Assembly: GCA_012295275.1 (NCBI GenBank)
Contig: CM022676.1
Coordinates: forward strand, 6,510,001 to 6,574,000
DNA: 64,000 nucleotides
Source of the DNA: Chrysomallon squamiferum
Lineage: Eukaryota; Animalia; Mollusca
Direction of reading: 5' to 3'
Made by a program: the position numbers and the translations under genes. The notes below the pieces were generated by a model that had not been told where the DNA came from, made no database searches, and was given only the letters and a program-made list of their open reading frames with translations. How positions within the stretch are numbered: the stretch's first letter is position 1; the number at the start of each line of letters is the position of its first letter. Shown piece after piece: positions 30,084-43,687 of this stretch.

Positions 30084-33000
30084 ATGGAGATGCTGCACGT
30101 GCTTCTCTTCGTTCTGCTAAAACTGTCGTCTGCTCAAGCGAAAGAAGAAGGTAAGGGCTTAGAATATTATTACGCACACACACACACAAAAAGAAGAGAA
30201 AATAGCCCGTCGAATAATTTTAGGGTTCTTTTTCTTTCTCGATCATGTAAACAAATCGATAAGTATTCCTACGTGATGGCGTTCGTTTGTGCTGGAATTT
30301 TTCAGCTGGCGAATGGTAGAGTTGAAATTAATCTTCGACAAATTGTTATCTGTTTTTGTAAAAGATGGTCTGTCAAAGCTGTAATTTTGTGATAGCACCT
30401 TGCCAGTGTTTTTAAACGAAGCAGTATTAATGGGGTTTGTTCACCGTACAAAATGGATGTACTAATAATTATTGTAGGTATGACGTACGTAAACAAAGAT
30501 ACACTGTAGGTAACAAATATGCTGAGATTATATATAACACACACACAGACACACACACAACACAGACACATATTATACACACACACACACACACACACAC
30601 ACACACACACCAATACAGATACATATACACACACACATATATACACAAACACATATACAGAAAAAGAGTAATGAATAAGTTTTCAAAATATCTTTTTTTT
30701 TCTGAGTCTTTCTGTCTGTCTGTTTGTCCATCCACACACAAATATTTCCCATTCTAGACATTAGTACGTCCTTTGCATAACCGAAATTACGTCTGAAGTT
30801 AATTAATCATTGTCGACATTATAATCAACGTTATCATCATCATCGTCTTCGTCAACAGTAGCATCATTATTATTGTTGCTGATATTACTATTATTAATGT
30901 TATTAAAATTATTAATATAATCATTATAATTAACATCATCATTAATTAGCATCACCATCATCATAATCATACATTATTATTGTTGTTGTTATTAATATTA
31001 TTACTGTTATTAACATTATTTATTTTTAATAATAATAATAATAACAACATTTTTTTATTATTATTATTATTATTATTATTATTATTATTATTTTTATTTT
31101 TATTTTTATTGTCGTTGTTGTTGTTGTGAACAACAAAAAAAGCATCCAGTGCTATAGTCAAAATGTACTGTAATATCTAAAGCGGTGTCTACATAACAAG
31201 CAGTGGAGATGGGAAAATGTTGACATTCTAATTATGTCTGATTTGTGTTCGCAAACAAAAGGTCAGACCTGCCAAGGCCTGTCCATTTATAACGTCACAC
31301 ATTTTATTCAAAACTTTAGTAGTAAAACAAACAAACAAACAAAACGATTTATAACAGTGGTCCCTTCGTTTTACCCTCTGCTCCTGAACAAAACCTGGAA
31401 TCAAGATCCTACGACCTACGAATTTTGAGACTAATAACTTAACCTTGTTTTGCATTTCTCTTAGCAGTTTGAGAAACAGGTTAAAAGAGGCGATTCCTGT
31501 ACCTGACATTTCCCTGACTGAATTTAGAAATTGTCTGGATACCAAGAGACGAACCCATAAACCTACTGGTTAAAGTTCAGGGACCTAACCGAGTACTGAA
31601 TAACTTTTGTGCTTTTGTTTTGGGAAAGAGGTGGTTCAAAGAGTCGATCTGTCGTCCTGCTAGCTATAAGATGAATGGCTTAGCCACAGAATCAGCGGAC
31701 CTGCTGATTACAAAAGGCGGTTTAAAAACCTTCCAATTTTACATTATCATAACTTTGAGTCGACAACAACTATTTGACGTTTTCTTAACATAATTACAAA
31801 AAGATATGATATCATGAAACAATTCGTGTTCGTGCCTTGCATAACATACTGAGGAAAAAAAAAAAATGGCTTCAAGAGTCGATCTTGCAATCTTTCCTGC
31901 TTTCATTTTCCGTGACCGTTCAGGCTAGCAAATTCTGTTCAGCCGCCAGGTTCAGTATTTTCCGCTTGAAGAGTATATTCAAAGTAAAAACCATTAAGCA
32001 AATCTTACGTCCGTTTTCAAAGCAAACGCCTAATAATTCATCGAATTAACTCTGATTTAATCAACGCACGCTATGATAGCGAACGTCGGCAAGTTGCTGC
32101 CTGATTGGTCGCCATGATAAACGGCTCAGCCAATCAATAACTAGCTTACATTTCATTATCTTAAATTTCGCAGGCGAGCCATGAGGTAATTAATTACGTT
32201 TCGCTACGTTCTCCCGTCGTAAAGTAAAACTTAAATAATAATTGTAAGTCACAGCACGAAAGAAAGACTGTAATTTAATTATGTTTCCTTGTTAGATATG
32301 ATGTAAGATTATGCATAGAAAATAATAACGTTAATTAAATAATTCTCTCTCTCTCTCTCTCTCTCTCTCTCTCTCTCTCTCTCTCTCTCTCTCTCTCTCT
32401 CTCTCTCTCTCTCTCTCTCTCTCTCTCTCTCTCTCTCTCTCTCTCTCTCTCTCTCTCTCTCTCTCATTCCCTGACCATACCCTTTCCGTTCCTGTCTTTT
32501 TTTGTCTATGACAGATAGAGAGTCCAAATGAATCAATGTTCAAGTTTTATATATATGTAATTCTTATCTGCCTGTCTCTCTCTCTCTCTGTGTGTCTGTC
32601 TATCTATCTATCTATCTATCTATCTAAGTTGTTTAAGGGTACAGTTAAATGTGATTAATGACGTGGATTAGACCAACCTTTCACTGAAGTGTCTGATCAA
32701 TATTTATCAGTCAATAATTCAAACTCATTTCTTATTTCTTCGAGGCTACATCCCTCTGATTGTTAACCCTTAACCCTGCTGCTCAAGAACATCATTACAC
32801 ATTTTGTATAAATGATTACCAGGGGACAAAAATCATCGATAACCACTATTCTCCAGAACGTTCCTGTTAAATATTATCAAGAAACCACAAAACTGTAATA
32901 AATCGTGTACGGGGAACTGGTTGGAATTCGAAATAACTCCAAAATGATACAAAGCGATAGTGATGCTGCGACGGTTGGCAGAACTGGTTGGAATTGGATA

Positions 33001-42000: not shown

Positions 42001-43687
42001 CTAGATACTGTTACGTCATTCTTACCTCTAGACACTGTTACGTCATTTTACCTCTAGACACTGTTACGTCATTTTACCTCTAGGTACTGTAATGTCATTC
42101 TTACCTCTTAGATACCGCTACGTCATTATTTCCTCTAGATACTTTTACGTCATTATTTCCTCTAGATACTGTTACGTCATTCTTACCTCTAGACACTGTT
42201 ACGTCATTCTTACCGCTAGATACTGTTACGTCATTCTTACCTCTAGACACTGTTACGTCATCTTACCTCTAGATACTGTTACGTTATTCTGAATCCCCTA
42301 TACGATCACGGCAACCCTCTCTCAACCCAGTTTCCATGATGATGAAAATAAATACTATAACAGCATCCATAACCATCCTAACTAACAAACCTCACCAGCC
42401 TATGGTACATTTTTTTTACTGTACGTTTTTCTCTACGTATACCGTATGGCATTTGTTTACATTGTTTTTGTGGCTGTATATTGTTCTTAAAGTATTATAT
42501 TACTGTATTATAGTACGTGTTGTGTGTACTAAAGTTTATTGTTTCAGTAAATTTTAGTGTTACCGTTTACTTCACGATTTCCCAGACTTAGGCATTTTCC
42601 TGACCAATGTTTCTCTCTCTTAGTCCTTGAAATTAAGGTTCAACAAAATTATTATTGTTGTTGTTGTTGTTGTTGTTGTTGTTGTTCTTATTATTATTAT
42701 TATTATTACTTTCTCGCAGATTCCAAAGCGTCGCTGGTTATTAACGAAATATCCACAGTGATTGACATTAACAACAACAAACCTTTCATATCGGTGGGAT
42801 TTCAGGACACAGGGTCCTGCACAAGACTTATTTCAGTCCGAATTTTCACCCGGTTCTGTTCCAACACCACGACGGCCTTCGCTACTTTCCGTGAGACGTT
42901 CGCCTTGGCGGAAGATCAGGTGATTCTCGGGGACTGCGTCCAAAACGCGGAGCTTGCCTTCCAGCCCAAGAGCACGTGCACGAGAGAAGGGGATTGGGCG
43001 CAGACGACAGGGGGTTGTAAGTGCAAAGAAGGATTCGTAGCTTTTGAAGACACTGCTTGTTTAAGTAAGTAATCTTTTCTTTCTCTCTTTTTTTTTTTTT
43101 TTTAATTTTTAATTTTTTAAATTTAAATATAAAATGTTATTATTATTTTCTTTTAATTTAGTAGGGCTACTTTTGTAGGGCTTCTTATTATTATTTATTT
43201 ATTATTATTATTTTTGTTTATTTATTATTATTATTATTCATTTATTTTATTTTATTTATTATTCATTTATTTATTTATTATCTTTATTATTATCTTATTA
43301 TTGCTATTATTATTGTTGTTGTTGTTGTTGTTATTATTATTATTTATCGGGGACGGCAGTTTGAAGTGTATGAAATTAAAATAAAGGCTACCTGTAGTAT
43401 TTTAGACAGCGTAGACTACAATACATTTACATCCACGATGTGACGTCATATTACCTTTTCAAGAAGGAAAAACCTGGCTGTATTCGGTTGTTTTGTTATT
43501 TTTATAATAAAAGTTTCTTGCAAAAGGAAACAAATGAAACAGCAACAACACCAACAACGACAACAACGACAACAGCGACATAAATAAATACATTTCTATT
43601 TTAATTTTAGGTACCTCGGACGTTTCACGAATAAAATATACGACATCTCTTCTGGTTCTGCTGCTGTTAAGAAACGCCATCTGGTGA
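30084..43687 (+). CDS. Eph receptor-like ectodomain-only protein (~285 aa): signal peptide, ephrin ligand-binding domain, Cys-rich (sushi/EGF) region and C-terminal hydrophobic tail; 5 exons
   Basis: Exons have GT-AG boundaries: 30084-30150 (MEMLHVLLFVLLKLSSAQAKEE), 40084-40157 (DVIFDSTTFRNLNWDSF..DG), 40924-41217 (WHEE..YSVC..NSWVTT..KPC..PVC), 42720-43064 (FQDTGSCTRLISVRIFTRFC..FATFRET..GDCVQNA..PKSTCTREGDW..GGCKCKEGF..AC) and 43611-43687 (STSDVSRIKYTTSLLVLLLLRNAIW*). Phases are compatible once 1 nt is added near the A-run 40982-40987 in exon 3. Motifs match the Eph consensus (YQVC, NNWLRT, FQDxGAC, LxSVRV, GxCVxNA, CxxxGxW, GxCxCxxG). Exons 1 and 5 are less certain than exons 2-4. Confidence 0.8.
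34856..35115. repeat. 78-bp tandem repeat x ~3.3 in Eph-like intron 1
   Basis: Units start at 34861, 34939 and 35017 (ACAGCATC.ACATCATCATTACCT.CATGTTCCA..GCGTTTTATTCAAATTCAGCAACG). Confidence 0.85.
41545..42290. repeat. Minisatellite, 27-bp unit x ~25 (TCTAGATACTGTTACGTCATTCTTACC) in Eph-like intron 3
   Basis: Directly visible tandem copies, most homogeneous at 41800-42280. Confidence 0.92.

Follow-up and report, generated by a model that had tools for sequence, protein, structure and literature searches.

Several receptor families possess dedicated genes for truncated receptors, among them FGFRL1/nou-darake, the TRAIL decoy receptor DcR1, T-cadherin and GFR-alpha; these paralogs keep the ligand-binding part of the receptor and lose the signalling part, and several are anchored by glycosylphosphatidylinositol (GPI). 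Among the Eph receptors, EphB6 and EphA10 are kinase-dead. Surveys of Eph evolution (PMC6485061 and PMC6993872) describe an architecture that is nearly invariant and treat short gene models as fragments. Tethered forms of EphA7 are reported to suppress phosphorylation of the full-length receptor and to convert repulsion to adhesion (PMC1431701). No stand-alone GPI-type Eph gene is described in the literature covered, which took in few subscription journals and not the supplement of PMC6993872. Here we present such a candidate from the mollusc Chrysomallon squamiferum, found in 64,000 nucleotides of assembly GCA_012295275.1 (contig CM022676.1, positions 6,510,001 to 6,574,000, forward strand), referred to below as the window. 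The gene is predicted to encode the ectodomain of an Eph receptor, cut short within its EGF-like domain and followed by a hydrophobic tail. Our preferred reading, to which we give a probability of a little under one half (roughly 0.48), is that the product would be a GPI-anchored, non-clustering and non-signalling ephrin decoy or adhesion protein.

Predicted gene and domain content

The features of the gene are listed below, in window positions.

30084..30150, + strand: predicted exon 1, with the start codon and signal peptide; ends in a GT, phase-1 donor
40084..40157, + strand: predicted exon 2, start of the Eph ligand-binding domain; AG/GT ends
40924..41217, + strand: predicted exon 3, ligand-binding domain core; 294 nt in the assembly, one too few
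40982..40987, + strand: frameshift site, one base missing in the assembly; an A run, with an extra base in the contig from sequencing run X1
42720..43064, + strand: predicted exon 4, end of the ligand-binding domain, sushi domain and first EGF hairpin
43611..43687, + strand: predicted exon 5, with a small-residue candidate omega region, a polar spacer, a hydrophobic run (about 43649-43669) and the stop codon TGA
43915..44153, + strand: candidate poly(A) signals, ATTAAA at 43915 and AATAAA at 44083 and 44148; motif scan only

An earlier, sequence-only reading of this DNA had proposed a stand-alone Eph ectodomain of about 285 residues in five exons, and this model stands, with minor adjustments of the coordinates: all five predicted exons have AG/GT ends and mutually compatible phases, and orthologs of the same length exist in other snails. 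With one unspecified base restored in the A run at 40982-40987, the predicted product is 285 aa long and comprises a signal peptide, an Eph ligand-binding domain (LBD), a sushi domain, the first EGF hairpin and a hydrophobic tail. The support for individual exons is uneven. Exon 1 lines up with the N-terminus of the ortholog from Gigantopelta aegis in a global alignment and is a weak BLASTP match on its own (E 0.065). Exon 2 aligns with the same protein and is covered by a run X1 contig with two synonymous differences, while exon 3 has a homologous exon in the database entry P0003 and is likewise covered by run X1. Exon 4 is 72% identical to the G. aegis protein. The poly(A)-type motifs after exon 5 are weak evidence, as they are common in DNA this AT-rich.

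When six pieces of the gene were scanned singly against Pfam, five gave no match at all. Exon 4 matched Ephrin_CRD (E 1.1e-11) and also the last part of Ephrin_lbd, although this second match (E 0.0027) misses the curated threshold; the whole G. aegis ortholog exceeds the cut-off for both families. Ephrin_lbd also lies above its cut-off in P0001, P0004 and P0163, the four LBD cysteines are present in all six short proteins, and every member begins with a hydrophobic N-terminus of the kind expected for a signal peptide (best 8-residue hydropathy 2.9-3.7). Of the LBD and Cys-rich region that had been assigned to exons 2-4, we retain the LBD, but the Cys-rich region only in part, as the sushi domain and, from the EGF-like domain, its first disulfide hairpin; the remainder of that domain is absent.

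The rest of a receptor is missing as well. A tblastn search with 26 Eph proteins of at least 480 aa, including full-length kinase-bearing Ephs such as P0042, found exons 3-4 only and nothing credible elsewhere in the 64-kb window, so that no fibronectin type III (FN3), transmembrane (TM), kinase or SAM exon was found there, as the sequence-only reading had noted for the DNA downstream. On the + strand between 43065 and 52104 lay just 5 of the 127 high-scoring segment pairs, each with E of at least 8. Past exon 5 the same strand continues with a BTB-zinc-finger gene (from 52104) and then CWF19L2 (an exon at about 61.6 kb), and no receptor exon intervenes. These results bear on the idea that the five exons might form just the 5' half of a full-length Eph, the remainder lying beyond the window or having been misassembled and exon 5 being an alternative last exon. 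Vertebrate Eph loci do yield truncated forms through alternative 3' ends (PMC1431701), but here the short form recurs in five independent annotations, its orthologs stop at 283-289 aa and lack any Pfam match to FN3, TM, kinase or SAM parts, and no long protein carrying the divergent exon 4 turned up in the exon 4 search or among the best 150 of 323 representative matches. The patch through which signalling Ephs cluster has also been lost, as set out below, and we consider a full-length locus highly improbable.

Orthologs in other gastropods

The most similar of the full orthologs found is the G. aegis protein XP_041373797.1 (289 aa), identical to the window protein at 200 of 282 aligned residues (71% end to end), including the last three. 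It was the sole hit among 58 candidates when exon 4 was searched against proteins of 201-2000 aa. Four abalone proteins (XP_067676804.1, XP_046565309.1, XP_071095152.1 and XP_048254429.1) share the layout; they come from Haliotis asinina (283 aa), H. rubra, H. cracherodii and H. rufescens, and are 283-288 aa long and 36-38% identical to the window protein. The H. asinina protein (P0004) was chosen by eye from a HMMER search of representatives, in which the best 150 of 323 matches were examined, and the other three came from a profile search (6 of 2187 candidates) plus a cluster look-up. Within that scope, and with a low-sensitivity word-indexed search, no member was found beyond neomphalines and abalones. 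Two single-exon gene calls in ENA, P0002 (exon 4) and P0003 (exon 3), are 73-77% identical to the G. aegis protein and show the same predicted gene in at least one further snail. The automatic RefSeq labels ('ephrin type-B receptor 1-like' for G. aegis, 'ephrin type-B receptor 1-A-like' for Haliotis) call the orthologs receptors, and mention neither the missing kinase nor the tail.

G. aegis and Haliotis belong to different gastropod subclasses, and their lineages split in the Palaeozoic. That proteins of the same length and layout occur in G. aegis and in four Haliotis species indicates a conserved gastropod gene and not a stray fragment.

The sequence-only reading had called the LBD divergent, and the short proteins are indeed only 24-33% identical to canonical Ephs, which are 37-77% identical among themselves in the same table. 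In a quick LBD-sushi tree of 62 rows (37 plus 25 of 76 vertebrate-like rows) the six short proteins form one branch with support 100, and in a second quick tree of 34 rows, with tails removed and 11 long or partial rows dropped, the support is 99. The group sits on a long stem and is placed weakly (82-83) beside the bivalve canonical Eph. As long branches meet in both trees, the monophyly of the group and its bivalve placement are provisional, and long-branch attraction is possible. A look-up of P0004 in the ESM Atlas returned Eph clusters only, all below 0.9, and a metagenome scan with the family alignment gave 148 pattern matches, none of which was confirmed.

Several other short proteins were considered and set aside. 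P0005 (Danio), P0057 (Tubulanus) and P0007, P0013 and P0099 have tails that fail the GPI rules described below, and they group with canonical Ephs. Most of the 250-350 aa proteins among the best 150 representatives are gene-caller fragments that read into introns.

The C-terminal tail

The phase-compatible last exon that had been proposed at 43611-43687 is upheld by its AG end, its phase and its match to the C-terminus of the G. aegis protein. This match covers 12 identical residues of 28, which is weak by BLASTP alone (E 0.58), but none of 5000 shuffles reached the global alignment score of the window and G. aegis sequences. We take predicted exon 5 to be supported by this match and not by its hydrophobicity, and the expectation that orthologs would carry the same tail is borne out in G. 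aegis.

In all six members the chain runs on for 24-30 residues past the hairpin cysteine and ends as a hydrophobic tail that lacks a cytoplasmic part. Candidate tails were assessed with a heuristic of our own, which asks for small residues at omega and omega+2 positions 17-31 residues from the end, a hydrophobic tail and at most one charge. The heuristic accepts 6 of 6 members, 3 of 51 controls (Eph fragments whose tails run on) and 6 of 176 other proteins. At 0.95-1.55, the best 19-residue hydropathy of the tails is low by the standard of TM helices, and the chain ends there. Abalone and neomphaline tails are similar in character, with an omega site that varies in position. Provided that the gene is real, we judge from these features that its product is probably GPI-anchored.

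The tail might instead be no GPI signal, leaving the protein secreted, or held by a short membrane anchor at its C-terminus, as a soluble ephrin trap resembling the secreted Ephs that mammals make by splicing (PMC1431701). The uncharged run of the window tail is only 11 residues long, and the candidate omega site lies 2-5 residues past the last cysteine and elsewhere in abalones, both of which would suit such a protein. A secreted protein would have no need, however, for the small residues and terminal hydrophobic stretch that are found in all six members across two subclasses, and we regard this alternative as improbable.

The break in exon 3

As assembled, the reading frame terminates after 76 aa. 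The phases of exon 3 demand 3n+1 nt, and its 294 nt are one base too few. A contig of 680 nt from run X1 (depth 46.6) spans 40847-41458 with 18 differing letters and five gaps; four of the gaps are intronic and the fifth is one added base at the A run, together with a T at 40983. The comparison reports each insertion or deletion at the left end of a run, which makes the order of letters at 40982-40987 ambiguous. Read in one order, the codons are Asp-Lys-Asn; the homologous exon P0003 has the same three residues, and G. aegis shares the Asp. The literal order places a stop codon at the break. We find the Asp-Lys-Asn order far more parsimonious, because the window then differs by one lost T within the homopolymer. 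The loss of a base from the A run, which the sequence-only reading had proposed, is supported, along with the restored frame, but the base lost was probably a T where that reading had supplied an A.

It could still be that, in a family that is real, a lesion in exon 3 has recently made the C. squamiferum copy a pseudogene or null allele. The frameshift is present in the assembly, the stop codon under the literal order would fit such a copy, and a neighbouring seven-transmembrane gene copy has an in-frame stop. Against this, the break lies within a homopolymer and the alternative order restores Asp-Lys-Asn, the other four in-exon differences of the run X1 contigs (exons 2 and 3) are all synonymous, and the protein is 71% identical to its ortholog with no other lesion. 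The neighbouring BTB-zinc-finger gene is likewise split over two frames, which suggests uncorrected insertions or deletions in the assembly. The frameshift is very likely an assembly error, and a broken copy has only a slim chance of being the right account.

A search of sequencing runs turned up no RNA run containing the stretch, three RNA runs compared with it gave short partial matches only, and exon 4 was without contig cover in any sequencing run compared; none of these results is evidence on expression.

Fold and surface residues

The G. aegis protein was modelled with AlphaFold on a 105-row alignment; the model reached a predicted local distance difference test score of 87, and its best matches in a structure search were Eph ectodomains (E 1.3e-18). 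Conserved residues were taken from PMC6485061 (18 positions) and PMC6123813 (the clustering patch and Arg103), and are numbered as in EphA2, mapped via the alignment. Eleven of the 18 positions are identical in all six short proteins. Kept in 6 of 6 are both LBD disulfides (Cys70-Cys188 and Cys105-Cys115) and the equivalents of Trp43, Trp52, Trp80, Tyr67, Thr83, Asn164 and Asp184. At the position of Arg103, whose salt bridge is critical for ephrin binding (PMC6123813), the short proteins have Lys or Arg; they have Thr or Ser for Thr101 and Tyr for Phe100. The equivalents of Tyr122 and Glu125 are kept in neomphalines only.

At the sushi-domain patch Leu223/Leu254/Val255, none of the seven short sequences has a hydrophobic residue. 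One or more such residues occur there in 24 of 26 invertebrate-type Ephs, and two or more in 72 of 72 of the vertebrate type, the rows having been assigned to the two types by hand. Since this is the patch by which Ephs co-cluster, the co-receptor role that had been suggested for the protein is weakened.

Proposed function and its weighing

We infer ephrin binding without signalling, with the mapped residues pointing both ways as to binding. The short Eph would bind the snail ephrin and act as a ligand sink, or would turn repulsion into adhesion. With its clustering patch lost, it would compete for ephrin in cis, in trans or after shedding, and would not enter and poison full-length receptor clusters. 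Both a full-length Eph and an ephrin are present in the limpet Lottia (PMC6485061, supplement), which indicates that a system to be modulated exists in gastropods. The molluscan ephrin is reported to be GPI-anchored (PMC6993872), so a contact between it and the short Eph would have no cytoplasmic tail on either side, and a pure reverse-signalling role, also suggested earlier, would need a transmembrane partner.

A number of observations weigh against the preferred decoy or adhesion reading. The orthologs come from gene annotation models, and the stop codon under the literal letter order has been mentioned. Of 159 arbitrary YAG acceptors further downstream in this AT-rich DNA, 23 satisfy the GPI heuristic as well, which makes the window tail alone weak evidence, contrary to the weight first placed on its small residues, spacer and hydrophobic run; the argument is the retention of such a tail in six species. 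The tails of abalones and neomphalines are not significantly alike, with 894-2353 of 5000 shuffles scoring as well. The family has evolved fast, neomphaline and abalone proteins being 34-37% identical over the LBD and sushi domain where a bivalve and a nemertean canonical Eph are 45% identical. The equivalents of Gln77, Asn79, Asp127 and Tyr179 are lost, the Ala190 position carries Lys or Arg in each of the 7 short sequences but in 0 of 98 canonical Ephs, and the conserved motif of the J strand and J-K region is replaced, with an N-glycosylation sequon there in all six members.

The last two of these changes would also suit a GPI-anchored stand-alone protein with a remodelled pocket, whose ligand is some other surface protein, a glycan or a microbial ligand and which serves adhesion or recognition outside Eph signalling. 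Ala190 lines the hydrophobic cavity of EphA2 with Cys70 and Thr101 (PMC3419725) and has served as an engineered-glycan site at the ligand interface (PMC8454987), and the long stem branch and low identity to canonical Ephs point in the same direction. On the other hand, the basic residue at Arg103, Thr or Ser at Thr101, Pro109, the Cys70-Cys188 disulfide and the length of the D-E loop are all kept, and the J-K and D-E loops vary among true Ephs too (PMC6485061). A changed ligand is the main alternative, and we hold it to be less likely than the preferred reading. For the gene as a whole, we suggest tentatively, and with less assurance than for the decoy or adhesion reading, that a separate gene for a GPI-anchored Eph has persisted ever since abalones and vent snails diverged, either as a pure adhesion or ligand-sink module, with no cytoplasmic tail on either side of its contact with ephrin, or as the first Eph LBD co-opted for a non-ephrin ligand.

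The position of the cut suggests how the gene may have arisen. Exon 4 ends in phase 1, one residue past the first EGF hairpin, and 78 of 135 database fragments that lack the continuation into the EGF domain show, at that very point, the residues that read-through of a phase-1 donor would give, indicating that a phase-1 intron after the hairpin is common to canonical Ephs. The 5' part of a molluscan Eph gene would have been duplicated and cut at this conserved intron inside the EGF-like domain, and a new last exon would have supplied the anchor signal. We infer this genomic duplication with a new last exon as the simplest history. Ten cysteines are kept in the short proteins, and after the cut all of them can pair.

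A conserved stand-alone gene shows that not all short Eph models are fragments. The family is also a natural experiment, in which one can see what surfaces an Eph can do without after the loss of signalling. Abalones are farmed, with cell and larval assays, which makes anchor, ligand and expression directly testable.

Other features of the window

Intron 3 contains a 27-bp minisatellite (27 copies, 41562-42290), and just after it, at about 42300-42570, lies a repeat matched by many contigs of the sequencing runs examined.

Downstream, at 52104-54319 (+), two open reading frames (ORFs) in different frames, one for a BTB domain and one for C2H2 zinc fingers, overlap near 52940-52997, and are probably a single BTB-zinc-finger gene carrying another uncorrected insertion or deletion. 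Exons of CWF19-like protein 2 follow at about 59290-63500 (+), the ORF at 61592-61948 giving a PDB match with E 1.7e-21. CpG drops to 0-15 per kb from 55 kb onward, unlike in the Eph-like gene; a low CpG count is the expectation for a methylated gene body.

Upstream, three intronless and highly divergent seven-transmembrane (7TM) ORFs without a Pfam match lie at 6981-7826 (-), 12593-13438 (-) and 26853-27677 (+), and a further fragment lies near 9590-9646 (-). They have 6-7 hydrophobic segments and ESM features at 0.95 to rhodopsin-family clusters; the two minus-strand copies are 94% identical to each other and 26% to the third. This is likely a cluster of chemoreceptor-type G-protein-coupled receptors. 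An in-frame TGA at 13004-13006 (-) in the second copy marks a pseudogene, a null allele or a base error. An imperfect palindrome of about 440 bp at 21141-21573, with arms 85% identical, is possibly a miniature inverted-repeat transposable element, and GC-rich ORFs without a Pfam match at 3667-3957 (+) and 23936-24304 (+) are possible first exons or promoters of other genes.

Comparison with known systems

With the Eph receptor tyrosine kinases (EphA4, EphB2, EphA2; PF01404 and PF25599) the short Eph has in common the signal peptide, the LBD jelly-roll with both disulfides, the sushi domain, the first EGF hairpin, the overall fold and the intron position after the hairpin. It differs from them in lacking the second half of the EGF domain and the FN3, TM, kinase and SAM parts, and in having a GPI-like hydrophobic tail, a polar clustering patch and a basic residue at the Ala190 position.

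Like the secreted or tethered Eph decoys that the mouse makes by splicing, such as truncated EphA7 (PMC1431701), the snail protein consists of the ligand-binding part without the catalytic domain. The mouse decoys, however, come as isoforms from the receptor gene itself, have the same ectodomain as the receptor and are secreted or tethered by a TM segment, whereas the snail protein is encoded by a separate, highly diverged gene and has a predicted GPI anchor. The kinase-dead Ephs resemble the snail protein in having an Eph ectodomain without catalytic output, but their architecture is complete, including a pseudokinase, and they can signal via partner Ephs (PMC6993872), and the snail protein does not have that architecture.

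In sum, the short Eph is not an Eph receptor tyrosine kinase, and is decoy-receptor-like. FGFRL1, DcR1, T-cadherin and GFR-alpha belong to other families, unlike this gene, which probably derives from an Eph. With it the Eph family would gain a dedicated decoy-type paralog, as the FGFR, TNFR and cadherin families have, and a GPI anchor on a receptor-type protein would reverse the usual rule, by which the anchor is on the ligand.

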